From Escherichia phage a20, in sequence record OQ067374.1: 64,000 nucleotides of DNA. The stretch is one strand, 5' to 3'. The notes below the pieces were generated by a model. The model was not told the origin of the DNA. It made no database searches and worked only from the letters and a program-made list of their open reading frames with translations. A program made the translations under genes and the position numbers. Shown here one piece after another: positions 3,773 through 43,048 of the stretch; the stretch's first letter is position 1, and each line of letters starts with the position of its first letter.

Positions 3773-3848
3773 TAATCATGTTTGTCTAACCAATACAGCC
3801 AAATCACTAGTACAGCTATTGCACCGAGAAATCCTAAGGCTAGGGCAC

Positions 3849-5174: not shown

Positions 5175-5178
5175 ATTT

Positions 5179-5319: not shown

Positions 5320-5465
5320 TACTCGCCTTTTAATACGTTAAGAAGCGCTAAGACCGCTAAGGTACCTTGTGATACGGCCTGTTGAAATACTGTTGTTTCG
5401 CCTGTAACTAAAGTGCTAACGAATAAAAACGACCAACACAGCAATGCAATAATCCATGCTACCAT
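5319..5465 (-). CDS. small hydrophobic membrane peptide (48 aa; ac/stp-region)
   Basis: Hand-translated MVAWIIALLCWSFLFVSTLVTGETTVFQQAVSQGTLAVLALLNVLKGE; SD GAGGT 9 nt upstream. Confidence 0.4.
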   Translation of the reverse strand: MVAWIIALLCWSFLFVSTLVTGETTVFQQAVSQGTLAVLALLNVLKGE

Positions 5466-5474
5466 TTTAATTAC

Positions 5475-5510
5475 CTCAAAAATAAATTAAAGGCCTATTA
5501 AGCTAGGCCT
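5475..5510 (-). terminator. terminator-like hairpin after ndd
   Basis: aggccta-ttaagc-taggcct hairpin with U-rich tract on minus-strand RNA; approx coordinates. Confidence 0.5.
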
Positions 5511-5517
5511 ATATAAA

Positions 5518-5964
5518 TTAGTAACTCTGCAGAATGAATTTGAAATTATCTGCCAGAAGACGGTTCATTTCAGTGAGTGTTTGATATTCTGATGTATGGT
5601 TGCGAGTGAATGCCAGAGCCAATTGTCCTTTACCGTAACCAGTGGTCAGTGGTTTCATGTTCTTAGCTGCAACAAAGATTACATCATATTCAATATTGTT
5701 AGTGCCCATAGTACGGGCTAGTTGCGAACGGCCTTGACGAATGTGAGAAAGAATTGCATCCAACCCTTGTTTAGAACGTTGACGTCCTACAAAGAATCGT
5801 GCTGCAACTTGACGCCAGTCAGATGAACCTTTAACAAAGAAGTAAAAACCTTCACGAGAACGAAACTCTTTAGAAACTTCAGAACCGTATTCGCCATTAC
5901 GAACTACTGCAACAACTTCACCGCCAACTGCCAGAAGGTCTTTACGAGTTAAATATTTGGACAT
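5518..5964 (-). CDS. ndd: nucleoid disruption protein Ndd
   Basis: 148 aa; ...[29 protein letters not shown]...[45 protein letters not shown]; recognised as T4 Ndd (151 aa). Confidence 0.85.
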
Positions 5965-6006
5965 GCTAATTTCCTCAATTGATTAATGTTTTTGTAATCC
6001 ATGAGA

Positions 6007-6040
6007 GCATTATACTCTGCTCTCAAGAGTTTGTACAATT
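6007..6040 (-). promoter_or_regulatory. early promoter for ndd (-35 TGTACA, 17 nt, -10 TATAAT) with -10 inside a short inverted repeat gagagc...gctctc
   Basis: Plus text gagagcATTATActctgctctcaagagtttGTACAatt. Confidence 0.6.
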
Positions 6041-6241
6041 TTATTCGGTTATATCAGAACGTTCAAAAAGCTCTTCAACAGTTAAACATTCGGTGTCATC
6101 CTCAATAAAGAATCGGGTCCAATACGTTGGGGCGATGCAGTTATGAGTTTGTCCGGCTATAGAAGCTACACGAATAAGCTGCTGACCATTATTCAGGACA
6201 AATTTTTCACCAATTTCAACATCTTTAAAAAGCTTAGCCAT
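6041..6241 (-). CDS. hypothetical small protein (ndd.x)
   Basis: ORF track, 66 aa; own promoter upstream. Confidence 0.5.
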   Translation of the reverse strand: MAKLFKDVEIGEKFVLNNGQQLIRVASIAGQTHNCIAPTYWTRFFIEDDTECLTVEELFERSDITE

Positions 6242-6267
6242 TTTGTGTTCCTCATATTTTGATAGGA

Positions 6268-6300
6268 CTACTATACCATAATCCTACCTTGTTGTAAACA
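6268..6300 (-). promoter_or_regulatory. early promoter (-35 GTTTAC, -10 TATAGT)
   Basis: Plus text gataggactACTATAccataatcctaccttgttGTAAAC. Confidence 0.55.
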
Positions 6301-6491
6301 ATTAAATTACATTAAAATATGTTAAAGCCAACCATGTTCCAGTGAACGAACATGCGATGTAAAAACCCGTATCACAAATTGTTCTTAGTACAATAAGAAG
6401 TGCATTTTTCATAAGTACCTCAATGCAATTGAAAATATTATACAAATCATAGGGATACTAAGCAACCATATTCCAATCCACATTTTAGAGC

Positions 6492-11121: not shown

Positions 11122-12222
11122 TTACGCTGTGAAGATTTTATCCCACATCGCAACAACTGCATCTCGGTTATACTTCTTCCATACTGCTTCAGCACGTTTA
11201 ACTCGAGCTTCGTATGTGTCAGTGAATTCTAATACAGCTTTTGTGTAAAGCGCAACTACTTCTTTCTTAGGAGTAGAGGAATCAATTTCTACACGCACAG
11301 TATCTGGGTCGTATTCGAATGTCGCATGAGGATAATCCTTAAAAACTAACTGGATTACAGGGACACCTTTAGAGATGGCTTCAATAGAACTATTCTCTAC
11401 CGTACCTGTGTCAGGACACGTATTAATAAGTGCTTTAGCCGTTTTAAGACGTTCCATGATTTCACTGTGTGGAGCATCAATAATAACAGGATATTTAGCT
11501 GGTGGTGCCCATTTACTAGGACAGTATCCTACACCATTTTCGCCTAGTGCTTTAATCGCTTCAAGAGCAACATCAGTACGACGCATTTTAGTGTCATAAC
11601 GTTGTGCACTAATAATCAGATCAGTCGCCGGAAGAACTTCAGGTTTCTCATTCAAACAAATAACCGGATAATCTTCGGCTTCAAACAACGGATTTGCTCG
11701 CCAATAATCATAATCGATTTTGTCAGTCAGACCTGAAGTCATATAACAATATTTGCGTTCAAATTCACGGAAGGCTTTAGTAGGAGCATAACTCTTACCG
11801 CCATTCTTATGAATTTGAATAGTCTGGTCCCAAATTTGAACAATGCCACGAGATACTGGTTCAAATGGTGTTGCCATAAAATTCTTATGAACTTTAGAGA
11901 GACCTGCGTCTTTAATTGCCTGAACGGTTAGTTTAGTCGGTTCCATAGTAACAACAAAATCGTATTCATGGATGCCGGCTAGTTCAACAATCTTACGAGC
12001 CATAGTATAACTCATACCTAGACTGAATTTAGTCAGATGACCAACAGGATGGTGTGTAACTTTCCAGTCACCAAACATGTCATTATCAAAGCCGATATAA
12101 TCAATATCGGCACCGATAGAAACTAAATATTTCAACACGTTCAAATGAACCGCTTCAAGACCACCTTGTACACGGTCAGGATTAAATGGGACTGCACGAG
12201 ATGGGATAAACATAACTTTCAT
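11122..12222 (-). CDS. putative GT-B fold glycosyltransferase (candidate DNA hmC sugar transferase)
   Basis: 366 aa; N-terminal MKVMFIP...GGLEAV...LVSIG and C-terminal ...ENSSIEAISKGVPVIQ motif typical of GT-B (GT4-like) enzymes; sits between rIIA.1 and gene 39 where T4 has gene 60/mobA. Confidence 0.55.
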   Translation of the reverse strand: MKVMFIPSRAVPFNPDRVQGGLEAVHLNVLKYLVSIGADIDYIGFDNDMFGDWKVTHHPVGHLTKFSLGMSYTMARKIVELAGIHEYDFVVTMEPTKLTVQAIKDAGLSKVHKNFMATPFEPVSRGIVQIWDQTIQIHKNGGKSYAPTKAFREFERKYCYMTSGLTDKIDYDYWRANPLFEAEDYPVICLNEKPEVLPATDLIISAQRYDTKMRRTDVALEAIKALGENGVGYCPSKWAPPAKYPVIIDAPHSEIMERLKTAKALINTCPDTGTVENSSIEAISKGVPVIQLVFKDYPHATFEYDPDTVRVEIDSSTPKKEVVALYTKAVLEFTDTYEARVKRAEAVWKKYNRDAVVAMWDKIFTA

Positions 12223-12235
12223 AATTAAGCCTTAT

Positions 12236-12266
12236 TAAAATTAAAATGAAGCTCCCGAAGGAGCTT
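12236..12266 (-). terminator. terminator-like hairpin overlapping the stop of the HNH gene
   Basis: aagctcc-cgaa-ggagctt with downstream U-rich tract on minus-strand RNA. Confidence 0.55.
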
Positions 12267-13062
12267 AGGACATCCAACACATTTTATAACCTTTGCAGGT
12301 TCTGTTAGGATTATTTAATGCTTTCAATATATTAGAAGACCCTATATCTAAATACTCTCTTAATTCATAAAGATAGTTAAAATCAATAGTTTCACCTGTT
12401 TTTACACTTGTGATTCTTATAGGCCTTCTTTCATATTTAGATTTATACAACTCTCTAGTCTTAGCTTTAGTTTCTTCCGACCTAGGAGTGTATGGTTTAA
12501 ATCCTTTTGTTTTAAATGTTTCCATTCTTGATTTAGTTATTTTATCCTGGTGTTCTTTTGTTTTTACAGGTGCTTTTCGCCCATTCTCCCAAGATAACTT
12601 GTTGGCCTGTATTATTTTATCTATTGCTTCTTGCGTATGAGTTTTACCATAAAATGGATTTAATTCGCCTATACGTTGTGAAGCAATATGTGACATTAAT
12701 TCTCTTGTTGCTTTAGTATGTTTTTTACCTTTAAATGGGTTGCCGTTTTTAGCAATCCATTCTTTCATAAATCTAGAGTGCTCTTTAGAGAATTCTTGTT
12801 TAAGCCAATCATAATCTCTAGAATTTCTAGCTCCCATGTAAAAAGCTCTAATAGCCATAAGCATAGAACGGTTCTTATGAATTTTATAAAGCAATAAATG
12901 GGCGATAAAATGCTCTCTAGGGGTCATTTTAACTAGATTTGATTTATCATTACTCCCACCCATAGATTTTGGCAATATATGATGTGTCTCAGTATAATTA
13001 GGAATAATGCTGCGGTTTTTAGCCGCAGCGATAAGTTTATCATAAATTTTACGATAATTCAT
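12265..13062 (-). CDS. HNH-family homing endonuclease (Mob-like) with NUMOD3-type repeats
   Basis: ...ETHHILPKSMGGSNDKSNLVKMTPREHFIAHLLLYKIH... plus repeated NPF(Y/K)GK(T/K)HT; start taken at MNYRKIY giving TAATG overlap with gene 39 stop. Confidence 0.8.
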   Translation of the reverse strand: MNYRKIYDKLIAAAKNRSIIPNYTETHHILPKSMGGSNDKSNLVKMTPREHFIAHLLLYKIHKNRSMLMAIRAFYMGARNSRDYDWLKQEFSKEHSRFMKEWIAKNGNPFKGKKHTKATRELMSHIASQRIGELNPFYGKTHTQEAIDKIIQANKLSWENGRKAPVKTKEHQDKITKSRMETFKTKGFKPYTPRSEETKAKTRELYKSKYERRPIRITSVKTGETIDFNYLYELREYLDIGSSNILKALNNPNRTCKGYKMCWMS

Positions 13063-14882
13063 TATCCTAGCATCCAATCTTTACGGAGTTCAGGGTCGTT
13101 ACCCATGAGCATTTCAAATAGTTCTTTCCAATTTTCAGGAAGTTTAACTACGTCGTACACAGGGTTTTGAATCATTTCTTTATATTCATCTCGCTGAAGT
13201 GAGCCCAATCCCTTGATGTATCGAATACTATGCTTAGGCAGTGTATCTTTAGCTTCTTCATACTCAGCTACAGTATAAAACCATTTTTGAGTTTTGCCAA
13301 TTTGTGCAATAATTACAGGCGTTTTAACAAAGCGAATACGTCCTTGTTCAAACAATTCAGGCCAATTACTAAAGAAAGCAAGCAAAGCTGGATAGATACT
13401 TCCAAGACCGTCATGATCGGCATCGGTCATAATTGCAATATTACGATAGTTCGTATTCTCTGCCTTTTCACCAAGAATAAGACCTGTGATAGCACAGATA
13501 TCAAAGAGCTCTTTGTTCTTCATCATATCAGCATATGACATACCCCAGCTATTCATCACCTTACCACGTAATGGGAATCCGCCGTGTAGTTCACGGTCAC
13601 GAACATCAATGAGATAACCAATTGCCGAATCACCTTCTGTTAAAAACAATGTCGTATCTGCATCTTTACCACATTGGTTAGCTTTAATATGCTTATGAAC
13701 CTTAGCTTTAGTTGCCTTTTTAGCTGCTTTAGTTTCTGCAGCCTTTTCTGCCGCCAATTTACGAGCTAATGCTGCTTCAACAATAGGCATAATCAAGGCT
13801 TCGTTTTTAAGAAGTGCCTGAGCAATTTTCTTAGCATCTAATTGGATATGATTACGAATATCACCATACGTTGACGTTAAACGTTCTTTAGTCTGAGAAT
13901 CAAAACGCATGTTGCTCATGTCTCTAATAAACATCAACATTGTGAGACATTCTTTAACACGAGCTTTAGTGACTTCAATACCCTTATATTTCTTTTTAAT
14001 ACCCGGCAAAAGATGTTCACAGATATCATCCATTACACATTCAACATGATGACCACCGTTTTTAGTATGGATGTTATTCACATAAGTTAAATGACGGAAG
14101 CCATCTGGTGATGTTGTGAATGCTATAGAGACTTTATCATTTTCTTGAATGATGTTATCTTCACCAAATTGTTTAGCAAATCGTTTAAAATTACCATCAA
14201 CCTTTTTACCATTAAATGTGAACTTGATATCAGGATAAACGACTGCCAATGTTTGAAGTCGGTCTAAAGTAATATCTAAATAAATTTGAGATAAATTATG
14301 CTCTTCAAATGAAGAGAAATCAGGAGTGAAGATTACTTTAGTGCCTTTACCTTTAGATTTCTTAGAAGACCATGATTTGTTTTCCATTCCGTTTGAACAG
14401 TTAACAGTGATTTCATTTTCGCCATCTGACGTGATGCCTGTAAACAACGTAGAGAAGATATTAGTTAAACTACTCCCGACGCCGTTCATACCACCAGTCT
14501 TGCGTTCAGAGTCATCACCAAAGTTACCACCAGCCTTTGGAATAGTCCAGGCTGCTACAGGCCCAGGAATTTGTTCACCTGTTTGGTCGGTAACTAAACC
14601 TTGAGGAATACCACGTCCGTTATCTTCCACCGAAACTTGATTATTTTTAATTTGCACATCAATTTTATTTGCAAACTTAAATGATGTACGAATAGCTTCA
14701 TCAACCGAGTTGTCAATAATCTCATCGATTAATTTAACCAGACCAGGAACATATTCAACTTGTTGATATTTACCAAACAAAAAACGCTCGTGTGCTTCTT
14801 TAGCCGAAGAACCAATATACATACCACTACGTTTCTTAATATGTTCTACATCTGACAATACCTTAATTTCATTTTTAATCAT
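13062..14882 (-). CDS. 39: DNA topoisomerase II large subunit, unsplit (gp39 fused with gp60-equivalent C-terminus)
   Basis: 606 aa; GyrB-like ATPase motifs (EIIDNSVDEA, VEDNGRGIP, GGxxGxG region) then TOPRIM region LFLTEGDSA...MTDADHDGLGS; one continuous ORF, no gene 60 split. Confidence 0.92.
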   Translation of the reverse strand: MIKNEIKVLSDVEHIKKRSGMYIGSSAKEAHERFLFGKYQQVEYVPGLVKLIDEIIDNSVDEAIRTSFKFANKIDVQIKNNQVSVEDNGRGIPQGLVTDQTGEQIPGPVAAWTIPKAGGNFGDDSERKTGGMNGVGSSLTNIFSTLFTGITSDGENEITVNCSNGMENKSWSSKKSKGKGTKVIFTPDFSSFEEHNLSQIYLDITLDRLQTLAVVYPDIKFTFNGKKVDGNFKRFAKQFGEDNIIQENDKVSIAFTTSPDGFRHLTYVNNIHTKNGGHHVECVMDDICEHLLPGIKKKYKGIEVTKARVKECLTMLMFIRDMSNMRFDSQTKERLTSTYGDIRNHIQLDAKKIAQALLKNEALIMPIVEAALARKLAAEKAAETKAAKKATKAKVHKHIKANQCGKDADTTLFLTEGDSAIGYLIDVRDRELHGGFPLRGKVMNSWGMSYADMMKNKELFDICAITGLILGEKAENTNYRNIAIMTDADHDGLGSIYPALLAFFSNWPELFEQGRIRFVKTPVIIAQIGKTQKWFYTVAEYEEAKDTLPKHSIRYIKGLGSLQRDEYKEMIQNPVYDVVKLPENWKELFEMLMGNDPELRKDWMLG

Positions 14883-14914
14883 GTTGTCTCCTCGTTATGA
14901 AGGTATTCTATCAT

Positions 14915-14947
14915 CCGAAATCTAAAGCAAAAAGGGCCGAAGCCCTT
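14915..14947 (-). terminator. UUCG-loop hairpin terminator upstream of gene 39 (overlaps stop of preceding gene)
   Basis: aagggc-cgaa-gccctt with A-run on plus strand. Confidence 0.6.
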
Positions 14948-15368
14948 ATTTAAATTTAATTTTCTGAAGTGCATCAATTGCAGCCAAACGCCCTTGTTCA
15001 CTTTTAACTGTAATGACCACATCGCCTGATACGATCACCGAACCATCAACAAATTCTATAGAGCCTTTTTTGAAATCGACAGCTGTATCTGGTTCCGGAA
15101 CTTCTTCAAAGAATTTAAATTCTGCACCATAAAGCAGAATATCACCTTGCATACTAATGATTGTACGTCCAGGTCCATCGGTTTCAGCGGCAATCATTGA
15201 AACACCATAACCAATCATCTCTTCTACAATAAAATCTCTTGATAATAAAACTGTATGCAGAGTAGTGTTAAGACGTTTACCAGTCGTATTAAGAATTCTC
15301 AAGAAATTATCTTCCTGTCCTTTGATAATACGATATTTCTTACCAACTTCAAAACCTTTAAAAGCCAT
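14946..15368 (-). CDS. hypothetical protein (goF/39.x position)
   Basis: ORF track, 140 aa; ...MIGYGVSMIAAETDGPGRTIISMQGDILLYGAEFK... Confidence 0.5.
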   Translation of the reverse strand: MAFKGFEVGKKYRIIKGQEDNFLRILNTTGKRLNTTLHTVLLSRDFIVEEMIGYGVSMIAAETDGPGRTIISMQGDILLYGAEFKFFEEVPEPDTAVDFKKGSIEFVDGSVIVSGDVVITVKSEQGRLAAIDALQKIKFK

Positions 15369-15370
15369 AA

Positions 15371-15550
15371 TTAACCCTTCTTAAGTAAGTCGTAAAAACC
15401 ACCGTTCACATGTTTAGGAGCAGAAACCCGACGAGTAGACAGACGATGACATTCAGGGCAAACATCGTTTTCTCGTTCAGAAATTCTTTTAATTTTTTCA
15501 TATTCATGACCACAATCTTCAGATTGACATTTATAGTCGTATAACGGCAT
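15371..15550 (-). CDS. small zinc-ribbon protein (59 aa)
   Basis: Hand-translated [37 protein letters not shown]...; C-x4-C ... C-x2-C; TAATG overlap with upstream gene; fits exactly between neighbours. Confidence 0.5.
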   Translation of the reverse strand: MPLYDYKCQSEDCGHEYEKIKRISERENDVCPECHRLSTRRVSAPKHVNGGFYDLLKKG

Positions 15551-33045: not shown

Positions 33046-33594
33046 TTAACGAGCCCATTTGATGATTTCTGTAATCAAAACATTACGTTCGCTTGCATTA
33101 AATCCTATAACTTTGTTAGCACCATCATGATTAAGTAATTGATACGTTTGGATTTTGTTATGAATTGCAAACTCTTCAAAATGTGAAATGACTGTATTAA
33201 AACCGAATGAAGACAAAGTAATAAGGTCGTCTTCAAAACTTTCAGTCATTTCGTTACGTGTTAAAATAATTGTGAACACATCATGGTTTTGGCAAAGACG
33301 AACATAATCCTGTTCATAAACGTCAAGAACCGAGTCCGCATCTTGTCGAATACGTCCATAAACCCAGTTACTAATATATCCACGGTCTAACAGATAAATC
33401 TTAGTAGGGTCTAAATAATTCAACATCGTTTCGAAACAGCCAACTTCATTTCGAGACTTAACATCGAAACGTCCATCAACTGTTCGTTTAGGGAAATCAA
33501 TCTTTACATATCTTTCACTAATTTCCATTATGTCATTAATGAAAGTTGTTTTACCAGCATTATCCGGGCCATCTACTAAAATAATTTTAGCCAT
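33046..33594 (-). CDS. P-loop nucleotide/nucleoside monophosphate kinase-like protein (thymidylate-kinase-like)
   Basis: 182 aa; Walker A LVDGPDNAGKTT and LLDRGYIS (DR-Y motif) as in dNMP/thymidylate kinases. Confidence 0.55.
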   Translation of the reverse strand: MAKIILVDGPDNAGKTTFINDIMEISERYVKIDFPKRTVDGRFDVKSRNEVGCFETMLNYLDPTKIYLLDRGYISNWVYGRIRQDADSVLDVYEQDYVRLCQNHDVFTIILTRNEMTESFEDDLITLSSFGFNTVISHFEEFAIHNKIQTYQLLNHDGANKVIGFNASERNVLITEIIKWAR

Positions 33595-33595: not shown

Positions 33596-34495
33596 TTATT
33601 CCTCGATTACGACATCTTCATATTTAGGTATATTATACGGTGAAGAAATTAAAGCATTAAAGTAGATGAACTCACCAAGACCTGGATGAAATACTTCTTC
33701 AGGATTTTCGAAATATTGAATCTTCGGACGTCCTTTAAGAATTTGATAGTATTCAGTTTTAGTTGGTTTAAAAATTCGAATCAACGCTTCTTCAGGATAC
33801 TTATTTCTGTCGAAGCTATTATTTGGATCGGTTATATAAAGCGGTTGGCCTAATTGAATTGCACATTCAACCACTTGTTCAAAACGATAGCATGGGTCAC
33901 TAATTCGAAATGGATGAAAAATACCATCTAGATGAATAGGAGCCAAATCACCTACAAGACGCTGCATGATGGAAGGACGTATAACTTTCTGCGTTACGAT
34001 AATCTTATTACCATCTGCACCTGCGTTAACCAGCACTTCTTTTTGACGTTCATTCAACACAGTAGTTTGAAGTGAACGATTAACCGACAACATATCGGTT
34101 TTTAAGAATTCGTCAATATAAAAACGTGGTTTATTAGGGTCTGCAGTGATATTGAAATTGAATTCTACATCAAAAGCGCCGTCATATCCGGTGATATCTG
34201 TGATTAGAAAATCACAATCATAATAAGCAATTAATGAATCAACCACAAATTCATTTTCAGTCCAGAAATATTTACGAGTGTTATACGCGTTATCTTTATA
34301 CCATAATGGAACAAACTTAAATTCTGGGAAAAGACGTTCACATTCTTTAATATCAGATGCATTACGTGGATATGTAATCACATCACCTGGATTAGCACGG
34401 TGCAAATGAAGTTGGAAGTTGCCATCCTTAAGGATAGCATACTGCCCAGTTTCATAAGACCGCATACTCAAAATAGGTACGCGGAAAATAGCCAT
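33596..34495 (-). CDS. protein of unassigned family occupying the T4 beta-glucosyltransferase position (candidate DNA-modifying transferase)
   Basis: 299 aa; no motif recognised; adjacent to the hydroxymethylase; T4 has bgt between uvsX and 42. Confidence 0.5.
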   Translation of the reverse strand: MAIFRVPILSMRSYETGQYAILKDGNFQLHLHRANPGDVITYPRNASDIKECERLFPEFKFVPLWYKDNAYNTRKYFWTENEFVVDSLIAYYDCDFLITDITGYDGAFDVEFNFNITADPNKPRFYIDEFLKTDMLSVNRSLQTTVLNERQKEVLVNAGADGNKIIVTQKVIRPSIMQRLVGDLAPIHLDGIFHPFRISDPCYRFEQVVECAIQLGQPLYITDPNNSFDRNKYPEEALIRIFKPTKTEYYQILKGRPKIQYFENPEEVFHPGLGEFIYFNALISSPYNIPKYEDVVIEE

Positions 34496-35211
34496 TAGTC
34501 AAGGAATCCTTTAACATAATCAAAATCACGTTCAAACACATGGGCACTTACCATGGTATGAGTATAATCACCAACTTCTACACCACATTCGTTAGCGATA
34601 TAATGAAGTAATTTTCCTTGGAGATAAAAATCCAACTGCATAACAACAGCACAGTTCTGAGAACGCATATGACAGTGGGTATAAAGCTTACCATCACGAA
34701 TATAATAAGTCACTGAGTCAGTACATGGATATTCAAGAGTTTCGTCCGAATCAAGCAAAGCCTGATCAGAACTTTCTAGAATTTGGAACACAACTCTTCG
34801 AGAGTTAGGCTTCTCTTTAAGTTCTTTTAGAAGAGCTGGTAATTGGGCCGCAATGCGAGGACCATAGAAAGTGTTGAAGTTCGCCGGCAAAACATCTGAT
34901 TTTGGTTTAGAAATAAATTTAGCGACATTAGGATATGCCTTAAACGCTTCTTCTGCGTTGGTACCACCAGAAATCATAAACTTCCAGAAGTCTTCGGCAT
35001 ATTCATAAGAGATGCGGTTAATACGTGGGTCAGTCATTTTGAATGATGATGGAGTGTCAACAACTACTGTCATAGACCCAATTTCATTACAACGTCCAAT
35101 ACGAGAATCAGTTACGAATTCCGGGTTTTCTAAAATTTCACGATTGACTGCTTTAAATGCGGTTTGAAAATCTGCGGCTTTGATATATTTCATTGTGTTA
35201 TGTTTTCCCAT
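34495..35211 (-). CDS. 42: thymidylate-synthase-superfamily pyrimidine hydroxymethylase (gp42-like, divergent)
   Basis: 238 aa; ...KPNSRRVVFQI...EYPCTDSVTYYIRDGKLYTHCHMRSQN... (catalytic Cys context and R-S-x-N/D region of TS/dCMP-HMase fold); position of T4 gene 42. Confidence 0.7.
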   Translation of the reverse strand: MGKHNTMKYIKAADFQTAFKAVNREILENPEFVTDSRIGRCNEIGSMTVVVDTPSSFKMTDPRINRISYEYAEDFWKFMISGGTNAEEAFKAYPNVAKFISKPKSDVLPANFNTFYGPRIAAQLPALLKELKEKPNSRRVVFQILESSDQALLDSDETLEYPCTDSVTYYIRDGKLYTHCHMRSQNCAVVMQLDFYLQGKLLHYIANECGVEVGDYTHTMVSAHVFERDFDYVKGFLD

Positions 35212-35253: not shown

Positions 35254-35493
35254 TTATTTGAATTTCTTAGCGATGTTGATATAACGTAAAGCTTCAGCAT
35301 CGATACTTCCAAGAACACTATGAAGAAATGCATCAGCGTAGTATTCCAATTGAACAGGTTCTTTAATCACTTTAGCCGCTTTGGTTCCAAACAGGCCCAT
35401 AAGGGCCTTTTTAAGAATTTGTTCATTAGTGTTCAGTTTCATAGTCAAAATCTCTTCATTAAGTTGGTGGTTAAAAGTTTTTCTAGAAATCAT
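35254..35493 (-). CDS. hypothetical small protein
   Basis: ORF track, 79 aa. Confidence 0.45.
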   Translation of the reverse strand: MISRKTFNHQLNEEILTMKLNTNEQILKKALMGLFGTKAAKVIKEPVQLEYYADAFLHSVLGSIDAEALRYINIAKKFK

Positions 35494-36650
35494 TCTGGGT
35501 ACCTCAAAGCGTCATCAGAGTTAGTTATATCAATAATAGATATAGAATTTTCTGATAACCCATTTTTAGATAACTGACGTTTATAATATCTTTCACAATA
35601 TGTACACGTCGTCCCGCAGATTTCATTAGCACAATCGAAATCTGGATGTCTGAACCACCTTTTTTCTAAAAAGCCATCTAACAAAGAGGTTTCAATATTT
35701 ACTGTATGTGAAAACTCAGTTTCGTTTTCAAGAGTGAAAATAGTCTCTAAAGGCTTCCACAGTTCTAACAAATTACCTTCAAACTTTTCAGAAGCGTATG
35801 CTTCAAGAACTTTCAAAATGTAGTCTGTGCTACCTGTACGTCCTGAAACTTTGAATTGAGTGATACCAATATCATTATAAAGTTTCAAATCTTGAGGACG
35901 AACAAAACGAGTTCTCAACCAGTTAAATGGGTCTGTATCACGAGCTTTAATGCAGTGTTGCATTGGATATCCGTTTAAGGATTTAGCATCATCAGCTGTA
36001 ACATCAGTACTATGGAAAATATAGCAAGAGTCACGATAGCTACAATGTGTTGTATACCCTTTACCAGCATTAGAACAGAACTCATTTACAAGAACTTCAA
36101 ATATTATATTGTTCTTATTGCAAAACTCTGCTGCACGCTTCAGGAAAGAAACTGAACGGTTCTTATGAATTCCACAGCAGACCTTTTTGATATTATATTG
36201 GTCATGCAAGTATTTGATTTGAGTTACAGCATCGACATGTAGAATTGTTGAAACTTCAATCTCAATGTCTTTATTGACTTCACGAACAATTTCCATAACA
36301 ACAGGGTTAGCGATAGTAATACGCCATACGCCTATTGACCAAAGATACTGAACATAATCCTGAATAGCTTTCTTCTTCCACTCAACTAGTTCTCTTTTTG
36401 AACCAGGATTTATCGTGTTGAGTGTATAGTTAAAGCAAATACCTAATTCGTTACAACGTTTAACGTAATCTTCTAACATCTTTTTGTCAACGTCAGGAAG
36501 CCTAAAATCAGGTCTGGCTGCTACAAAAGCCATTTCTCTTGTAGAGCCGTATACTTCGTTTATCAAGCTATTAGGATAAGTTTTATTGAGCTCTACGATT
36601 TTATCAAGAAGAGCTAAATCAAAATTCGTTCCAATTTTAAAAGTATTCAT
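35490..36650 (-). CDS. Cys-rich putative Fe-S enzyme of unassigned family
   Basis: 386 aa; clusters KKVCCGIH, EFCSNAGKGYTTHCSYRDSCY and C-terminal DCANEICGTTCTYCERYY (contains a CxxxCxxC spacing). Confidence 0.5.
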   Translation of the reverse strand: MNTFKIGTNFDLALLDKIVELNKTYPNSLINEVYGSTREMAFVAARPDFRLPDVDKKMLEDYVKRCNELGICFNYTLNTINPGSKRELVEWKKKAIQDYVQYLWSIGVWRITIANPVVMEIVREVNKDIEIEVSTILHVDAVTQIKYLHDQYNIKKVCCGIHKNRSVSFLKRAAEFCNKNNIIFEVLVNEFCSNAGKGYTTHCSYRDSCYIFHSTDVTADDAKSLNGYPMQHCIKARDTDPFNWLRTRFVRPQDLKLYNDIGITQFKVSGRTGSTDYILKVLEAYASEKFEGNLLELWKPLETIFTLENETEFSHTVNIETSLLDGFLEKRWFRHPDFDCANEICGTTCTYCERYYKRQLSKNGLSENSISIIDITNSDDALRYPE

Positions 36651-36707: not shown

Positions 36708-37097
36708 TTATAGATTCGGTTTATATGATTTAAATGTTTCGAATTCGCCTTTATTCATAAGAGCTTTGAATTCGTCAGGACGCATAGCTTTGTCGTCGAT
36801 AATCCAATCATATACTGGTTTATGTGTTAGCAAATTATGGTACTTCAAACCAATGTTTTCCAAGTTCTGAATCAGACTTGGGAGAATGTCAATTGCTATA
36901 CGTCCAGGACCTACTGACTTCATACCGCGAGCAGTGTAAAGCGTTATGGTATGCCCTGCATCATACAGAGCATTAATAGCAGTCACCATTTCGACGTCTG
37001 GTTTGAAGTTCACGTAATCACGATTGTTATTCCACTCTGTTATACAATCATCGACGTCCACGCAAAGATGTAATGGTTTCATAGCAATATCCTTCAA
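36708..37097 (-). CDS. small HAD-superfamily phosphatase
   Basis: 129 aa; motif I LCVDVDDCIT (DxDx[T/V]), ITLYTAR, and K...IIDD; start may be the ATG 15 nt downstream. Confidence 0.6.
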   Translation of the reverse strand: MKDIAMKPLHLCVDVDDCITEWNNNRDYVNFKPDVEMVTAINALYDAGHTITLYTARGMKSVGPGRIAIDILPSLIQNLENIGLKYHNLLTHKPVYDWIIDDKAMRPDEFKALMNKGEFETFKSYKPNL

Positions 37098-37809
37098 TAG
37101 AATTTTTAATATTATCAGCTATACGCTTTCTAGGAATACCCGTTTTCTTTTCAGCTATCCTAAGAGATTCATAGTAATTTTCGTTTATTTTAACAAATTT
37201 TTGAGACTTGTGAGCATTTTTGCTTTCGTCCTGATATCGATAATTAAGATATTTAGGCGATTTTACTCTCTTTTGAATCGTGGCAGAAGATATACCCAAA
37301 TCTTTAGCCGCTTCCCGACAGGATTCATAATATTTGCCATCTACATTAATCTTTAGACCATGTAATGCAGGTTTACCATACCTCCTGTGCTTTTCTTTAC
37401 CCCTAGCTATAGATTCAGCTGACAAAGTTTTACCCCATCTTGGGTTTTTATCACCAACTAAACGTCCTTTATTTGCCTTAGAAATTTTATCCTTGGACCT
37501 TTGGGATAACCCGTCAGAACCGCCTTCGCCACCAGTTTTAAGATTGTAATAATTTGGGTCTTTAACTATGTCTAATGTTATTAGAGCCTTTTCAGCTATT
37601 TTTAATTCTTCTCTCGAGCTATGGTAGGAAATGATTTCTTTAAGAAAATTTTCCTTCCCGTATTTCCTTTCAGCCTTTTTATATAATTTACCAGAACCTT
37701 TATATAAATCTAAAGGCTCGGCTTCTTCAGCCGAGTGCATTCCTAAATAAACTTTACCGTTTATAAGATTAGTAGTTTTGTAGAGATAATGTATCAAATT
37801 CGTTCCCAT
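37048..37809 (-). CDS. GIY-YIG homing endonuclease (Seg-like)
   Basis: 253 aa; N-terminal HYLYKTTNLINGKVYLGMHS...YKGSG (GIY-YIG module), basic DNA-binding C-terminal region; overlaps both neighbours. Confidence 0.8.
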   Translation of the reverse strand: MGTNLIHYLYKTTNLINGKVYLGMHSAEEAEPLDLYKGSGKLYKKAERKYGKENFLKEIISYHSSREELKIAEKALITLDIVKDPNYYNLKTGGEGGSDGLSQRSKDKISKANKGRLVGDKNPRWGKTLSAESIARGKEKHRRYGKPALHGLKINVDGKYYESCREAAKDLGISSATIQKRVKSPKYLNYRYQDESKNAHKSQKFVKINENYYESLRIAEKKTGIPRKRIADNIKNSIEGYCYETITSLRGRR

Positions 37810-39479
37810 TGATGAGTGATATCGCCACCGATTGGACGATAGGAAACACCAGTTTCTTTATCAGTTAGTACCCATTTACCAGGATTTTTTGTAATCAGAG
37901 TAGCCGTTACAGGTTCTGCTACGTCATAACTAATAGAGCCGTCTTGAAGTACACGGCCCATATTACGTAATTGCTTAGTCAGAAGTTCCATACCTTTATA
38001 ATATGCGGCTACCGCTTTAAGTGGATTATTCTTGAAATAACCACCTAATGCAATCCAGATAATTGCCACTGCCAAATGATGATACTCGTTAAACGAACTC
38101 ATCTTTCCATATTTGTAAACTAATGGATTGATGTTAATAGTCACATTACAAGTTGTTTCATCAATAGTAAACTGTCCCCAGGTCGGATTAGCATTGAATT
38201 CATCATAACCTGAAACAGCATAAAGCACTTTAGCTTCATCATACAATTTTGGCCCGTAAATCTTGGTTTCGCCAAAATATCCACGAGGGTCGATAAACTT
38301 AACTTCGCCGTTATCAGTAATCATAGTATTACTGAAGTTCGGGTCACCATGAATAACAGAGTACTGTCCCTGAGAACGGTTATGATAACGAATAAGATGT
38401 TCTAAAGCTTGTTTCAGCATTGGCTTCAGACGTCCAATCTTAGTGTAGTTCACATGTGTGATTTTACCAAATGAATCAATCAATGGTTGAATGCTTTCAC
38501 AACGATCAATAACTTTCGTATAGAATTCTTTAGTGAAATCACGACGAACAGTTTCAGGACTTACAAAATAAGTGTCTGTGCTGAATTTCAGTGCATCTAA
38601 AATTGTATCAACAATTTGTGGACGAGCAAGACTTGATTTGGATTTAATATATTCAAATGCCGGCTTACCTTTAATGCGTTCCATTTCAAAGTTATTTTCA
38701 TTAACAGAAACTAACTGAGGGACTGAATCTGATTTCACTTTCAAATACCACGAAATCTCATCTTTCTGAAGAGCTCGGCCCTGTTCGGTTAATGCGAATT
38801 TAGTTACAGTTTCTTCACCGATTTCAACTGCATTAAAACTACGATTAAGTTCACGAACTTCATGAGCTTTTTCAAGTTTAGGCATATCACCTAAATCAAT
38901 TAGATTCATAAGCTCTGATTTATTGAATGCGCCGCTGTAAAGGAATTCTACGAAATCACGTCCTTTGCAGTATTCATGAATTTCTTCATCAGTAGAACCC
39001 ATATAGAATTCCCAGTCTTTGAACTGATAAATTCCTACAACATTACCACCTGTTGAACCTACGTTAGTGATATTTTCACCGTCGAAATTATATCGACATT
39101 CGTCGCCCTTAACATAGATTGCGTTAACATTCCAAGACCATGAACCAAAATCGGGAATAATATCACACCAGTTAACAATTACATTATGGCCGTCTAAATC
39201 TTTGTGTAATTTAGCAAGAGCATAAGCAGATCCATACGCTTCATCAACTGTACGAATAGTCACATTGAACCCTTCTTGCTCACAATAAGCTCGAACAGTT
39301 TCAGCAAATTTTGAATGAACTACTACAATAATTTCATCTGCGCCTAGGTCAGAATAAATTGTATACAAATTGCTCAGAATAGTGTCTTGTTTATAGTTAA
39401 CAAGCACCTTAGGAATATGGTGAGTAATTGGATATAAACGAGTTGCCAGTCCAGCACCAAGAATAACAGCTTTTTTCAT
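37794..39479 (-). CDS. bifunctional sugar-1-phosphate nucleotidyltransferase (N-terminal) / APH-ChoK-type kinase (C-terminal)
   Basis: 561 aa; N-term MKKAVILGAGLATRLYPIT...PKVLV (G-x-G-x-x-R-L nucleotidyltransferase signature, LicC/RmlA-like); C-term HGDPNFSNTMIT...VKFIDPRGY (Brenner HxDxxxxN and DxxG of aminoglycoside/choline kinase fold). Confidence 0.7.
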   Translation of the reverse strand: MKKAVILGAGLATRLYPITHHIPKVLVNYKQDTILSNLYTIYSDLGADEIIVVVHSKFAETVRAYCEQEGFNVTIRTVDEAYGSAYALAKLHKDLDGHNVIVNWCDIIPDFGSWSWNVNAIYVKGDECRYNFDGENITNVGSTGGNVVGIYQFKDWEFYMGSTDEEIHEYCKGRDFVEFLYSGAFNKSELMNLIDLGDMPKLEKAHEVRELNRSFNAVEIGEETVTKFALTEQGRALQKDEISWYLKVKSDSVPQLVSVNENNFEMERIKGKPAFEYIKSKSSLARPQIVDTILDALKFSTDTYFVSPETVRRDFTKEFYTKVIDRCESIQPLIDSFGKITHVNYTKIGRLKPMLKQALEHLIRYHNRSQGQYSVIHGDPNFSNTMITDNGEVKFIDPRGYFGETKIYGPKLYDEAKVLYAVSGYDEFNANPTWGQFTIDETTCNVTININPLVYKYGKMSSFNEYHHLAVAIIWIALGGYFKNNPLKAVAAYYKGMELLTKQLRNMGRVLQDGSISYDVAEPVTATLITKNPGKWVLTDKETGVSYRPIGGDITHQWERI

Positions 39480-39520: not shown

Positions 39521-39664
39521 CTAGTTAAAGCATTCATACTTTGCTTGTAGTCCAATCATAATCCATCCAATTACAAGTGTTGGAATCATTACCGGAGCCG
39601 TTAAGCTCCAGTAGATAGTCATGACAAGCATCAATAGTAAAAGTCCTATTGCTATTGCTTTCAT
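39521..39664 (-). CDS. small hydrophobic membrane peptide (47 aa) between the sugar-isomerase gene and the fused kinase gene
   Basis: Hand-translated MKAIAIGLLLLMLVMTIYWSLTAPVMIPTLVIGWIMIGLQAKYECFN; TAATG overlap with SIS gene stop; imm-like position. Confidence 0.4.
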   Translation of the reverse strand: MKAIAIGLLLLMLVMTIYWSLTAPVMIPTLVIGWIMIGLQAKYECFN

Positions 39665-40296
39665 TATTCGCCTCGTAACATGGCACCTAGTGCACCACCA
39701 GGGTGGAACTTAAGGAAATCATTAGAGGTAAATCCACGTTCAGACGAAAGGTTGATAGCAAACGTATCGATAAGCGCTAACAACAATGTAGTGGACATAG
39801 TCGGAGCCAGAGAATTCTCATCAACCTCTACTGCGATGCCTGTACAGAAAGAGTAATCAAAAAGGGCTTCATTTTCTTGTGGAATGTCTGGGTTACAATG
39901 CAACAGAATCTGTTTGACGTTCGGACGAATCATTTTAAGATGCTTAGCCACGCCTATCATTTCTTCAGTTTTACCAGAACGACTAATATGAATCAACACA
40001 TCATTAGGCGCAATGAATCCTGCATCACCGTGAGAATAATGCCCAGTGTTCAAGTACATACTCGGGATACCTAGTGAAGCAAAAGTCTCGGAAGCTTTAG
40101 TTGCGATATTAGCATTCTTACCAACACCTGTAATAATTACTCGGCTTTCATAATTACTAAGTCCCGGGCGTCGAAGAGTTTCTAGAATAGCATTATAACG
40201 AGCAGGGTTTTGACTAATTACTTTGGCCATAGCGGCCAAAGAAGAAGCTTGTTTTATGATTGCGTCAATAGCGATAGTAATAGGAGTAGTTTTCAT
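39664..40296 (-). CDS. single-domain SIS sugar-phosphate isomerase, KdsD/GutQ-type (arabinose-5-phosphate isomerase-like)
   Basis: 210 aa; VIITGVGKNANIATKASETFASLGIPSMYLN...SHGDAGFIAPNDVLIHISRSGKTEE...LAPTMSTTLLLAL...GFTSNDFLKFHPGGALG closely parallels KdsD core motifs; lacks CBS domains. Confidence 0.8.
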   Translation of the reverse strand: MKTTPITIAIDAIIKQASSLAAMAKVISQNPARYNAILETLRRPGLSNYESRVIITGVGKNANIATKASETFASLGIPSMYLNTGHYSHGDAGFIAPNDVLIHISRSGKTEEMIGVAKHLKMIRPNVKQILLHCNPDIPQENEALFDYSFCTGIAVEVDENSLAPTMSTTLLLALIDTFAINLSSERGFTSNDFLKFHPGGALGAMLRGE

Positions 40297-40336: not shown

Positions 40337-43048
40337 TCAAAAATCGAACATATCGAACAGAGATGCTTTCTTCTCGTAATCGAGTTTCGCTGCTGATGTG
40401 AATCCTTCAAGTGGTTTAATAAATGTCTTCTCAAGGAGAACAGTGTAGTCCATCCAATGAAGTACGTCGTCTTTAATTAAATCTGTGATTTCAGTGCCAG
40501 AAGGCCATGCGATACATTTATCACCGAATGGGTTTCCTTCACGTAAAGGCAGAACATATACTTTTTCACCTTCTACAACTTGCGGTGCATCGATATTACC
40601 TTTGATAGCCCGGTTATATGTCAGAATTCCACGAATATGGAACGGACATTTGGGACCAGGGAATCCACCTACGTCATATTTAGCAATGTTATTCGCAGAA
40701 GATACCGACGCGATGCTAATATAATTCAATTGGCGGAATTCTTTTTCAAACTCTTTAAAATATTCTTGTAATGATTCTTCACCTTCTTGAAGCATACGAC
40801 GAATACATTCTTTAAGAGCTTTCTGTACTGCTTTAGGAGTCGAAGATTTCTGTGTTTCGAGACCCATGATTTTAAGCTTAGGTTCAGCGTATCTGGTTCC
40901 TTCCATATCCCACACGTTTAATGCATAACGTTTCTTACCAGTCCAGAATCCACCAATACCTTTAGAACCGAGCGGAGGACCAGCGATAGCTTCTCGGTCC
41001 ATGAACATCAAATGTTGCTTATTATTCATGTATTCGCACATTTCACGGAAACCTCTATCAATAGCAGGTTCCATACGTTCACGAGCGAACTTATCTAAGA
41101 AGTCTACCCAATGGTTGGTATCACGGAATTTAGATTCACCAACCTTATCGATAATTTTATCAGCAGATACGTAAATAGAGTCTGTATCACCATATAGAAC
41201 GAAAGCTTCACCTTCTGTACCACAAACTTCATTCAGATATTCATTAACTTTACGTTCAATCCACTGTAAAGCCATTTGACCAAATGTTGTGATTGCAGTA
41301 GCATTACGCAAATCATAATAACGGAACCAAACGTTGCCAAGTGCACCATAAAGTGAGTTGATAAGCAATTTACGGTTAATCTGTGCAGTCATACCTGCAA
41401 CTTCAGTACGTTGAGCTCTAAACAACATTTCATTAAGAGATTTAGCAGACAACTTTTTAATCTTTTCTTTAATCTCATCACTGAAGTCGAAACGATAATC
41501 AACATCTAATGGTTCGTCAACAGAAAGATTAGGATTATGCAATGCCTCTTTAATTATTTCACCATTACGTTGAGCTGCAAGCATGTAACCTTTATGTTCT
41601 TTACGTTGATTAAAGACCTTAGTGATTTCAGTTGGAACTACACCATCACGGTCTTTATAATACATCATGCCGTTAGGAGAGCAACTGTACACATCTGAAG
41701 GACGTTCAGCGATTGCGTTAATATAATCATGCAGTGGAGCTACTTTAAACGTTCCTGCTATTGTTTCCGGGCTAATATTCACTTGGCGAATAATACTTGG
41801 ATACAGAGATGTAAGGTCGAAACTCATTACATATTTGTATCGATTTGGAATAGGTTCCTTAACAAAAGCGCCAGGATAAGGTTGAACCGGGTGAGAACGA
41901 CCTTGTGGAATCACCTTGTTCTGCTCTTTAAGGCTATTAAAAATAATAGCATCCCATGTTTTAATTGGACTGAACACAGATTGAATCTGAATTTTAGCAT
42001 AATAACCCATGTCCAAGCTCAAGTTAATGAACTGGCGTTTAGCATCAATTTGCAATACACGATATACGTCGATGATGTTATAGCTTATATATCGTTGATG
42101 ATTACTTTCGCGAAGTTTAGAAATAGGACCGTCATATTTCAGTTTACCAACGTTCAATTCAAATTCTGAAATGTAATCCAGAGAATACGACGGTTGATTG
42201 GTAAAAGAGAATTTTTTGTAAAGGTCAATGTAATCAAGAACAGAGATACCGAACAATGTAATGATTTCACGAGAACCATACATGTTTTCGATAACTTTAA
42301 CACGAGTTTTACGATGCGGTGATAAACGTTTCGCAGTAGATTCGCCAAAAATATTCTTGATTCGGTTATACACATATGGAATATCAAATGACTCAACGTT
42401 CCATCCAGTCAAAATGACAGGAGTTTTCTGTTGCCAGAAGTTGAGATATTCCATCAACAATTCTTTTTCGTTATCGAACGGCATATAAATGATTTTATCG
42501 ATAATTTCAGATGGAACTTCATCACCGCCTTGTTCTTGAAGCTTAGCAGCGATTTCAATAGACCATTCTTCTACATTACCATACGGAGAATTCAATAGAT
42601 CAAATACGTAGAACCTGTCGTCAATTGAGTCATAATGGGTGATAGCATCAATCGGATGTTTTGCTTGTGACGGCTCAGGGAACCCATCCGGAGATGTTAC
42701 TTCGATGTCGAAGTTAGCCACACGAATTTTTGTATGGTCGTATTTGATTTCATAGTTATAAGTGTCAGACAAATACGCCAATTTGAAATCGTCCATGCCA
42801 AGTGCTTCAAGTCCGATATCTTCCATGCGTTTAATCCATTGGGAGGCATCACGCATATTAGCGAACAACTTACGAGTACACGGTTTACCGTAGATATCGA
42901 AATATTTCGTAGCCTGACTTTCTGGACAATGAGCAAACAGTGATGGTTTATATTCTACTTCACGAGTACGTTCACGGCCATTAGAATCGATGTAACGTTC
43001 AAAAATTGAATCACCAATCTGTTCAACCGTTAAGTAAAATTCTTTCAT
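40337..43048 (-). CDS. 43: family-B DNA polymerase with 3'-5' exonuclease (gp43), RB69-type
   Basis: 903 aa; exo motifs FDIEV / YNIIDV, polymerase motifs DxxSLYPS, K(x3)NSxYG, YGDTDS; N-terminus MKEFYLTVEQIGDSIFERYIDSNGRERTREV. Confidence 0.97.
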   Translation of the reverse strand: MKEFYLTVEQIGDSIFERYIDSNGRERTREVEYKPSLFAHCPESQATKYFDIYGKPCTRKLFANMRDASQWIKRMEDIGLEALGMDDFKLAYLSDTYNYEIKYDHTKIRVANFDIEVTSPDGFPEPSQAKHPIDAITHYDSIDDRFYVFDLLNSPYGNVEEWSIEIAAKLQEQGGDEVPSEIIDKIIYMPFDNEKELLMEYLNFWQQKTPVILTGWNVESFDIPYVYNRIKNIFGESTAKRLSPHRKTRVKVIENMYGSREIITLFGISVLDYIDLYKKFSFTNQPSYSLDYISEFELNVGKLKYDGPISKLRESNHQRYISYNIIDVYRVLQIDAKRQFINLSLDMGYYAKIQIQSVFSPIKTWDAIIFNSLKEQNKVIPQGRSHPVQPYPGAFVKEPIPNRYKYVMSFDLTSLYPSIIRQVNISPETIAGTFKVAPLHDYINAIAERPSDVYSCSPNGMMYYKDRDGVVPTEITKVFNQRKEHKGYMLAAQRNGEIIKEALHNPNLSVDEPLDVDYRFDFSDEIKEKIKKLSAKSLNEMLFRAQRTEVAGMTAQINRKLLINSLYGALGNVWFRYYDLRNATAITTFGQMALQWIERKVNEYLNEVCGTEGEAFVLYGDTDSIYVSADKIIDKVGESKFRDTNHWVDFLDKFARERMEPAIDRGFREMCEYMNNKQHLMFMDREAIAGPPLGSKGIGGFWTGKKRYALNVWDMEGTRYAEPKLKIMGLETQKSSTPKAVQKALKECIRRMLQEGEESLQEYFKEFEKEFRQLNYISIASVSSANNIAKYDVGGFPGPKCPFHIRGILTYNRAIKGNIDAPQVVEGEKVYVLPLREGNPFGDKCIAWPSGTEITDLIKDDVLHWMDYTVLLEKTFIKPLEGFTSAAKLDYEKKASLFDMFDF

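Follow-up and report, generated by a model that had tools for sequence, protein, structure and literature searches.

The stretch analysed here, referred to as the window, is 64,000 nucleotides of Escherichia phage a20 (OQ067374.1). Positions 35490 to 36650 on its minus strand are occupied by a single open reading frame (ORF) that starts with ATG and encodes a protein of 386 amino acids. The protein contains 13 cysteines, at positions 66, 72, 158, 159, 177, 192, 203, 209, 233, 340, 345, 349 and 352. Residues 339-356 are DCANEICGTTCTYCERYY, in which C345, C349 and C352 create a CxxxCxxC (CX3CX2C) spacing. The original prediction of a cysteine-rich ORF at this place with such a C-terminal motif is therefore confirmed. 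The protein is identical to RB69 gp50 (NP_861740.1) at 385 of 386 positions and is its ortholog. It belongs to the U32 family, and we somewhat favour a function as an oxygen (O2)-independent, prephenate-dependent pyrimidine C5 hydroxylase that provides an anaerobic route to 5-hydroxycytosine nucleotides. We infer its substrate, oxygen donor and anaerobic role from family, context and distribution. The gene and its two cysteine segments are as follows.

35490 to 36650, minus strand: predicted U32-family iron-sulfur (Fe-S) protein, 386 amino acids, RB69 gp50 ortholog (Pfam PF01136)
35952 to 36077, minus strand: core cysteine segment, residues 192-233, candidate [4Fe-4S] ligands (spacing CX10CX5CX23C; conservation)
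35595 to 35633, minus strand: C-terminal CX4CX3CX2C, residues 340-352, candidate second metal or Fe-S site (conservation)

The original prediction had left the protein without a family. It matches Pfam PF01136 (Peptidase_U32) with 42.2 bits, above the cutoff of 22.4, over residues 94-286 and profile positions 2-192 of 233. It also matches phrog_5757, ‘peptidase’, with E 6e-267, and the label ‘peptidase U32’ is already used by Pfam, PHROGs and many GenBank records. An AlphaFold2 model based on 72 homologs is confident (mean predicted local distance difference test score, pLDDT, 92.6). It shows a TIM barrel like that in 5d88, the sole solved U32 structure. This is Mk0906, a Methanopyrus kandleri U32 ‘peptidase’ without known function, which is 14% identical over 247 residues. 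The likeness covers the barrel only, and Mk0906 has no counterpart of the C-terminal four-cysteine region of the phage protein. Sequence and profile searches of the PDB with the phage protein found no real relative, and a match to BIM1 (E 0.009) was spurious. Among the E. coli paralogs, RlhA is the best match in hhalign (82.5%, E 1e-5, 205 columns), followed by TrhP (12%) and UbiU (6%). By the NCBIfam models the protein is not a UbiU or TrhP ortholog, and it is a member of a separate, sizeable subfamily. In a representative library clustered at 50% identity, 1699 clusters match at E<=1e-3, and the subfamily contains at least 481 at E<=1e-30.

Conservation across homologs indicates that the cysteines are more than a chance feature. 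Nine of them (C158, C192, C203, C209, C233, C340, C345, C349 and C352) do not vary among 120 homologs with identities as low as 47%; conservation in orthologs was the check named in the original prediction. Among 126 more distant full-length representatives, C192, C203 and C233 are kept in 98-100% and C340, C345, C349 and C352 in about 95%, while position 209 is Cys in 59% and His in 40%. The C192-C233 segment coincides with the segment that contains the ligands C169, C176, C193 and C232 in UbiU and C169 and C176 in RlhA, and likewise with that in UbiV. In UbiU the four cysteines ligate a [4Fe-4S] cluster, and the motif is kept in most U32 subfamilies (Pelosi et al., PMC6747719). RlhA requires C169 and C176 plus C580 and C611 in its C-terminal region (Kimura et al., PMC5727448). 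The phage protein has four cysteines as do the U32 Fe-S hydroxylases, with the spacing CX10CX5CX23C compared to the canonical CX6CX15CX3/4C, and the register is ambiguous. MAFFT places the phage segment one-to-one on the UbiU ligands, and the fourth cysteine is found in a similar context, ‘GYPxxxC’ in the phage protein and ‘GYPTLC232’ in UbiU. In hhalign, C203 and C209 are paired with RlhA C169 and C176, with a common CYIxH string. The earlier suggestion of an Fe-S protein is thus supported by homology, and C192, C203, C209 and C233 are candidate ligands of a [4Fe-4S] cluster.

The C-terminal CX4CX3CX2C is absent from E. coli UbiU, UbiV and TrhP in our alignment. Judged by its conservation, it is a signature of this U32 subfamily and a candidate second Fe-S or metal (zinc) site. 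A radical S-adenosylmethionine (SAM) enzyme, which the CxxxCxxC spacing could also indicate, was rejected. No Radical_SAM Pfam match was found at E<=0.01, and the motif is C-terminal, located outside the matched U32 core and accompanied by a fourth invariant cysteine, C340.

The characterised U32 pathways (RlhA, TrhP and UbiU/UbiV) work without O2 and depend on prephenate and Fe-S clusters (PMC5727448, PMC10990095, PMC6747719). RlhA (YdcP), the 5-hydroxycytidine synthase for C2501 of E. coli 23S rRNA, has the U32 domain in common with the phage protein. It yields cytosine hydroxylated at C5, which is the base chemistry proposed here. Its essential cysteines are located in the U32 motif and the C-terminal region, and it requires prephenate and Fe-S biogenesis. 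RlhA is longer than the phage protein (653 residues compared to 386), its architecture is duplicated or extended, and its target is a single rRNA residue. The two are about 21% identical in the multiple alignment, and the phage CX4CX3CX2C differs. Unlike RlhA, the phage protein is encoded among deoxynucleotide and DNA-glycosylation genes. TrhP (YegQ) is a U32 protein that produces 5-hydroxyuridine (ho5U) at tRNA position 34 without O2 by using prephenate, and TrhO is its O2-dependent alternative. This dual route resembles the one we propose for the U32 protein and the neighboring gp48-type enzyme, although the TrhP substrate is tRNA, unlike the proposed phage substrate. UbiU and UbiV, also U32 proteins, each bind a [4Fe-4S] cluster with four cysteines, use prephenate as the oxygen donor and are paired with flavin/O2 hydroxylases; UbiU is the top, albeit weak, NCBIfam match of the phage protein. 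They act on a lipid-soluble aromatic substrate as a heterodimer and need UbiT, whereas in the phage protein one polypeptide carries two cysteine clusters.

These likenesses raise the question of an RNA substrate. RNA is the substrate in two of the three characterised U32 activities, and T4-like phages encode their own tRNAs. The protein might be a TrhP/RlhA-like hydroxylase that tunes translation in infected cells through host or phage tRNA or rRNA and is unrelated to DNA modification. We consider this the least probable of the alternatives. E. coli already has TrhP, TrhO and RlhA. The C-terminal domains of TrhP and RlhA are absent in the alignment, and the TrhP equivalog model failed to recognize the protein. 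In addition, the U32 gene is embedded in DNA-modification genes and moves with them across very distant phages.

The genes surrounding the U32 gene are all on the minus strand. The block is 98-99% identical to those in Mosigvirus coliphages such as NRG-P0074, and the G+C content is 34-39% throughout the window.

33046 to 33594, minus strand: thymidylate-kinase-like nucleotide kinase, RB69 gp45 ortholog (synteny; PMC13326640 Table 1)
33596 to 34495, minus strand: glycosyltransferase, DNA arabinosyltransferase 1, RB69 gp46:47 ortholog, acceptor 5-hydroxyl (RB69 synteny; PMC13326640 Table 1)
34495 to 35211, minus strand: thymidylate-synthase homolog, RB69 gp48 ortholog (Pfam Thymidylat_synt; 236 of 238 residues identical)
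35254 to 35493, minus strand: ORF of 79 amino acids, phrog_8601, between the U32 and thymidylate-synthase-like genes
36708 to 37097, minus strand: HAD-type phosphatase, RB69 gp51/AfhF-like, uridine diphosphate (UDP)-arabinose branch (PMC13326640)
37048 to 37809, minus strand: GIY-YIG homing endonuclease
37794 to 39479, minus strand: bifunctional nucleotidyltransferase/kinase, RB69 gp52:53/AfhE-like, UDP-arabinose branch (Pfam NTP_transferase and kinase-like matches; PMC13326640)
about 39661 to 40296, minus strand: arabinose-5-phosphate (A5P) isomerase
about 40337 to 43048, minus strand: DNA polymerase

The GIY-YIG endonuclease gene, which is I-TevI-like, overlaps the phosphatase and nucleotidyltransferase/kinase genes at its two ends. 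In most Mosigvirus relatives, 89% of a 6.5-kb query was matched in two pieces, apparently because this insert is absent.

The placement of the U32 gene inside a modification block, as originally predicted, is supported by conserved synteny. Other parts of that description were revised. The gene is not directly upstream of the thymidylate-synthase homolog, as the 79-residue ORF intervenes, and this neighbor, which had been taken for a hydroxymethylase, is a hydroxylase by its near identity (236 of 238 residues) to RB69 gp48. The DNA of RB69 contains arabinosylated 5-hydroxycytosine, not hydroxymethylcytosine (Lee et al., 2026; PMC13326640). RB69 gp48 converts deoxycytidine monophosphate (dCMP) to 5-hydroxy-dCMP, binds flavin and incorporates oxygen from 18O2, and He et al. 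are cited for in vitro confirmation of O2 as the oxygen source (PMC13326640). The orthology to gp48 indicates that the DNA base in phage a20 is arabinosyl-5-hydroxycytosine. Lee et al. listed gp50 in Table 1 only, as a ‘sugar or heterocycle reductase’ with fold matches to 5d88 and no experiment. Their discussion names two RNA pyrimidine-hydroxylation pathways (the RlhA and ho5U papers), unconnected to gp50. In the paper on phage Thanatos, the authors state no hypothesis for how the hydroxyl is attached.

The gp48-type enzymes, RB69 gp48 and DLP3 gp80, share a gene cluster with the U32 protein and make the product that we propose for it. They belong to the thymidylate-synthase superfamily, with a fold unrelated to U32, and use flavin and O2; their function is experimental, whereas that of the U32 protein is inferred. 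The two cysteine clusters of the U32 protein could make an electron relay, and it might be an accessory protein in redox reactions or electron transfer, for instance that of gp48. We find this very unlikely, since gp48 and a deoxynucleoside monophosphate (dNMP) kinase alone yield 5-hydroxydeoxycytidine in E. coli (PMC13326640). A Pfam scan of the U32 protein detected no NAD(P)H-, flavin- or nucleic-acid-binding domain. Furthermore, distant phages keep the U32 gene without a gp48-like gene in the DNA examined. This low probability also takes in a true peptidase, which is suggested by the historical U32 ‘collagenase’ annotation in many records and is unsupported by the characterised U32 members.

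Analysis of close relatives revealed a link between the U32 gene and prephenate synthesis. Among cultured phages, 221 records carry the U32 gene; all are T4-like, with hosts among enterobacteria (including Proteus, Yersinia and Serratia) and Shewanella. In Klebsiella phage KLB31, the gene between U32 and the thymidylate-synthase homolog encodes a 79-residue protein that matches Pfam CM_2 (chorismate mutase) with 38.5 bits, compared to a cutoff of 27. A tblastn search found this chorismate mutase in 48 cultured phage records, always between these two genes, and a hidden Markov model (HMM) search found it in 13 of 15 T4-like IMG/VR loci. In the cultured-phage database, chorismate mutase matches occur essentially only beside the U32 gene. 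The cluster is rearranged in Shewanella phage Thanatos-2, with the order nucleotidyltransferase/kinase, gene of unknown function, thymidylate-synthase-like, glycosyltransferase, kinase, U32 and chorismate mutase (locus positions 574-6391). Yet the CM_2 gene directly follows the U32 gene and overlaps its end.

In the window, the 79-residue ORF occupies the slot of the chorismate mutase in related genera and encodes a different protein. A diverged chorismate mutase was rejected, as no CM_2 match was found at E<=10, and comparisons to the phage chorismate mutases by BLASTP and hhalign were negative (hhalign probability 0.1%). Its ATG overlaps the stop codon of the U32 gene (ATGA), and a GAGGT Shine-Dalgarno sequence is located upstream. 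The protein is cysteine-free and predicted to be helical, and single-sequence AlphaFold2 produced a low-confidence helical hairpin (pLDDT 61.6). Homologs are found in Yersinia phages and, beside a true chorismate mutase, in locus L025; some phages have both genes. The 79-residue protein might be a partner of the U32 protein.

We compared the records with a U32 gene to those with a thymidylate-synthase-like gene, taking the host genus from the record name.

Klebsiella: 26 thymidylate-synthase-like records, 26 with U32
Proteus: 7 thymidylate-synthase-like records, 7 with U32
Yersinia: 6 thymidylate-synthase-like records, 6 with U32
Escherichia: 176 thymidylate-synthase-like records, 136 with U32
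Acinetobacter: 57 thymidylate-synthase-like records, 0 with U32
Rhizobium: 22 thymidylate-synthase-like records, 0 with U32

The hosts of the U32-bearing cultured phages seen are all facultative anaerobes. Mosigviruses have the U32 gene, and no chorismate mutase was detected in them. The thymidylate-synthase-like, glycosyltransferase and sugar genes occur without U32 or chorismate mutase in Dhakavirus coliphages and in Acinetobacter phages, so the U32 module is an optional insertion.

More distant U32 homologs, at 40-58% identity, are found in uncultured viral contigs, many of them 150-466 kb long. Most genome-derived homologs come from obligate anaerobes represented by metagenome-assembled genomes (Erysipelotrichales, Oscillospiraceae, Gastranaerophilaceae, Romboutsia, Tannerella, Clostridia and Angelakisella), and one is from a Phocaeicola faecalis isolate. 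The distant viral set contains 35 loci in 25 lineages at 80% identity. DNA arabinosyltransferase 1 homologs are located near the U32 gene in 26 of the 35 loci, often directly upstream. An AfhE-like nucleotidyltransferase/kinase is found in 16 and a SIS-domain isomerase in nine. A thymidylate-synthase homolog within 10 kb on either side is present in only one of the 25 lineages, and it resembles ordinary ThyA (243.6 bits). Neighboring genes encoding proteins of about 250 residues were considered as hidden thymidylate-synthase homologs and rejected. With the distant U32 gene beside a glycosyltransferase gene and no thymidylate-synthase-like gene in sight, a source of the hydroxyl acceptor is needed.

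The prephenate link is also present in these distant loci, in lineages with 40-55% identity. A DAHP-synthase-family protein is encoded directly downstream of U32 in a BLAST cluster of 12 loci, and a stricter HMM confirmed DAHP synthase in six of them (L024, L035, L037, L038, L039 and L049). Stand-alone CM_2 proteins or DAHP synthase-CM_2 fusions occur in 11 loci from four lineages, plus the genome loci L059, L062, L064 and L065. Fusions beside U32 are found at 8411-9430 in L035, 7302-8354 in L038 and 6922-7956 in L062, and in GenBank MT837090.1. These phage fusions would be auxiliary metabolic genes that push the shikimate pathway toward prephenate. The DAHP-synthase-like neighbors were also considered as KDO8P synthases linked to A5P, and this was rejected: DAHP synthase models gave 160-220 bits compared to 50-67 for KDO8P synthase, and several of the proteins are fused to CM_2.

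The original prediction had suggested a redox or isomerising step of the sugar pathway. Several observations are in line with a sugar-branch enzyme that modifies or reduces the pentose precursor before its transfer to DNA. The gene lies inside the arabinosylation block, between the HAD phosphatase and the base-modifying genes, and its distant homologs co-occur with sugar-activating genes and glycosyltransferases. The reductase label of Lee et al. (PMC13326640 Table 1) would fit such an enzyme, and two BASEL records (MZ501047 and MZ501056) carry the label ‘putative enzyme involved in UDP-arabinose biosynthesis’. However, the synthesis of UDP-arabinofuranose is already explained by A5P isomerase, AfhE and AfhF (PMC13326640, citing He et al.). 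These sugar genes are present, and U32 is missing, in the Dhakavirus cluster and in Acinetobacter phages DLP3 and Maestro; the latter two make arabinosyl-5-hydroxycytosine (PMC13326640). Sugars are not among the substrates of the characterised U32 proteins, and the recurrent linkage to chorismate mutase and DAHP synthase lacks an obvious place in pentose chemistry. A sugar substrate is therefore improbable in our judgment, and the gene neighborhoods favour a step that hydroxylates the base.

The neighboring genes also bear on whether the base is hydroxylated in a nucleotide or in DNA. In other distant loci, the U32 gene adjoins genes for dCMP deaminase, thymidylate kinase, deoxynucleoside kinase (dNK) and 5’-nucleotidase (NT5C), and MazG and dUTPase genes are common neighbors. 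A four-gene cassette consists of GP88 (PF17338), a guanylate-kinase-methyltransferase fusion, a weakly AGOG-like protein of about 267 residues and U32. It is found in eight loci, namely seven of the 13 genome-derived loci plus L002, and a ninth, L063, has only an AGOG-like fragment. The kinase, deaminase and nucleotidase neighbors and the guanylate-kinase-methyltransferase fusion suggest a nucleotide-level substrate. Hydroxylation of cytosine in phage DNA after replication, a polymer-level action like that of RlhA, is unlikely, if less so than a sugar substrate. It would agree with RlhA and TrhP modifying polynucleotides, with RlhA being the best-matching E. coli paralog, and with the cellular cassettes placing U32 beside a weakly AGOG-like, that is, DNA-glycosylase-like, protein. 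However, phages that replace every cytosine normally use the nucleotide pool, and phage a20, like its relatives, has dCTPase and dNMP kinase functions. The U32 neighbors named above, from dCMP deaminase to MazG and dUTPase, are nucleotide-pool enzymes, and the lack of a detected nucleic-acid-binding domain also argues for a mononucleotide.

The four-gene cassette spans several phyla, with many anaerobes among them. It is located at 5132-9098 in L002 and is also found in L060 and L066-L071, for example at 3044-7137 in L069, the Phocaeicola faecalis isolate. It may be a hydroxylate-then-methylate system for nucleotide or DNA modification. In the region 12160-15428, L002 contains a second, very divergent U32 paralog of 377 residues, which gives 21.7 bits in Pfam, just below the cutoff. 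It is located 4 kb from the first U32 gene, after a radical SAM/SPASM gene and before a nucleoside 2-deoxyribosyltransferase gene. Another arrangement is found in two jumbo-phage-like contigs, L001 (1-9086) and L004 (335-9083), one of which is 466 kb long. The row consists of a radical SAM/SPASM gene, a glycosyltransferase family 4 (GT4)-like gene of 402 residues, thymidylate kinase, uracil-DNA glycosylase (UDG), DNA polymerase III alpha, which is either fused to the UDG or encoded after it, and U32. L004 has a MazG-like gene at its start, and L001 has a dCMP deaminase gene just before U32. The row looks like a further hypermodification block.

Taken together, the chemistry of U32 proteins, an O2-dependent C5 step in the same block, the linkage to chorismate mutase and the company of glycosyltransferases and methyltransferases make an anaerobic hydroxylase the most economical reading. 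The gp48-type enzyme needs O2 and the hosts are facultative anaerobes, which creates a need for an anaerobic route. E. coli has a dual design of this kind, in UbiI/H/F and UbiU/V and in TrhO and TrhP (PMC6747719, PMC10990095, PMC12783734). In the proposed mechanism, chorismate would first be converted to prephenate by the chorismate mutase domains of host PheA and TyrA or, in sister genera, by the phage chorismate mutase encoded beside the U32 gene. The U32 enzyme, with a [4Fe-4S] cluster on C192, C203, C209 and C233 and perhaps another metal site formed by the C-terminal cysteines, would then oxidise the C5=C6 bond. The hydroxyl would be taken from prephenate, which would decarboxylate to phenylpyruvate. 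The substrate is most likely dCMP, giving 5-hydroxy-dCMP, with deoxycytidine triphosphate (dCTP) or DNA as alternatives. 5-hydroxy-dCMP would be phosphorylated and polymerised, and the DNA would then be arabinosylated. The U32 enzyme would thus act in parallel to the flavin/O2-dependent gp48-type enzyme, and its product would be the acceptor for DNA arabinosylation. A genome of ~168 kb at ~37% G+C has ~60,000 cytosines, each of which would consume one prephenate, a scale that appears to fit. This cost per cytosine would explain the added chorismate mutase or DAHP synthase. There is a precedent for DNA modification at the expense of prephenate in the CmoA/CmoX carboxymethylcytosine system of Synechococcus phage S-B43, which borrows the tRNA toolkit for uridine 5-oxyacetic acid (cmo5U). 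That system uses carboxy-SAM and an enzyme with a methyltransferase fold, and neither a U32 protein nor a chorismate mutase has been reported for it.

Several points weigh against an anaerobic hydroxylase. The similarity to characterised members is weak: no NCBIfam equivalog cutoff was reached (UbiU, 18.5 bits compared to 440), and the TrhP model gave no match to the window protein and 11.8 bits to a homolog, with a cutoff of 534. The pairing of cysteines to ligands depends on the alignment, and since MAFFT and hhalign disagree, the claim is limited to the segment and does not extend to exact residue pairs. No chorismate mutase is found in the 64 kb of this Mosigvirus phage. The Dhakavirus phages of E. 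coli lack U32, so phages in at least some niches can do without it. The absence of a thymidylate-synthase-like gene in distant phages holds for 10 kb on either side only, and the correlation with aerobic and anaerobic hosts comes from few clades that are phylogenetically non-independent. CmoA, which other phages use, likewise draws on prephenate, in this case to make carboxy-SAM (PMC12783734), so the chorismate mutase linkage alone is no proof of a hydroxyl-donor role. Hydroxylation in vitro had not been demonstrated for any U32 protein as of 2024 (PMC10990095). Full-text searches, whose coverage did not include He et al. 2026 and Mahler et al. 2025, found nothing that links U32, chorismate mutase or prephenate to phage 5-hydroxycytosine, and no experiments on the U32 protein or any ortholog were found in the literature searched. 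With these points considered, we still hold the anaerobic hydroxylase to be slightly more probable than all other readings together.

The reading can be extended to the subfamily, where we regard the case as evenly balanced. The subfamily of at least 481 clusters with the C-terminal CX4CX3CX2C, so far unrecognised as such, would consist of prephenate-dependent, O2-independent C5 hydroxylases for deoxypyrimidines or DNA. They would serve as a backup in phages of facultative anaerobes and as the sole source of the hydroxyl in phages of strict anaerobes, where it would next be glycosylated or methylated, with the donor supply boosted by chorismate mutase or DAHP synthase.

Glycosylation of 5-hydroxycytosine has been described recently, and the published hydroxylase needs O2, while coliphages also multiply in the gut, which is largely anoxic. 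If a second route that works without O2 exists, it would explain how the modification is kept up there. This bears on how phage resistance to restriction and CRISPR is predicted for therapy-relevant conditions. If the proposed reading holds, U32 enzymes would for the first time be placed in DNA modification, and the protein might be the first of them whose substrate, small and soluble, lends itself to reconstitution in vitro. U32 hydroxylases are widespread, and a single-chain member of 386 residues with a nucleotide substrate could make their mechanism testable. The linkage of U32 to chorismate mutase and DAHP synthase would represent a new kind of auxiliary metabolic gene, one that supplies an organic oxygen donor. 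The presence of the subfamily beside kinase-methyltransferase fusions in anaerobic bacteria hints at further hydroxy- or methoxy-pyrimidine modifications.

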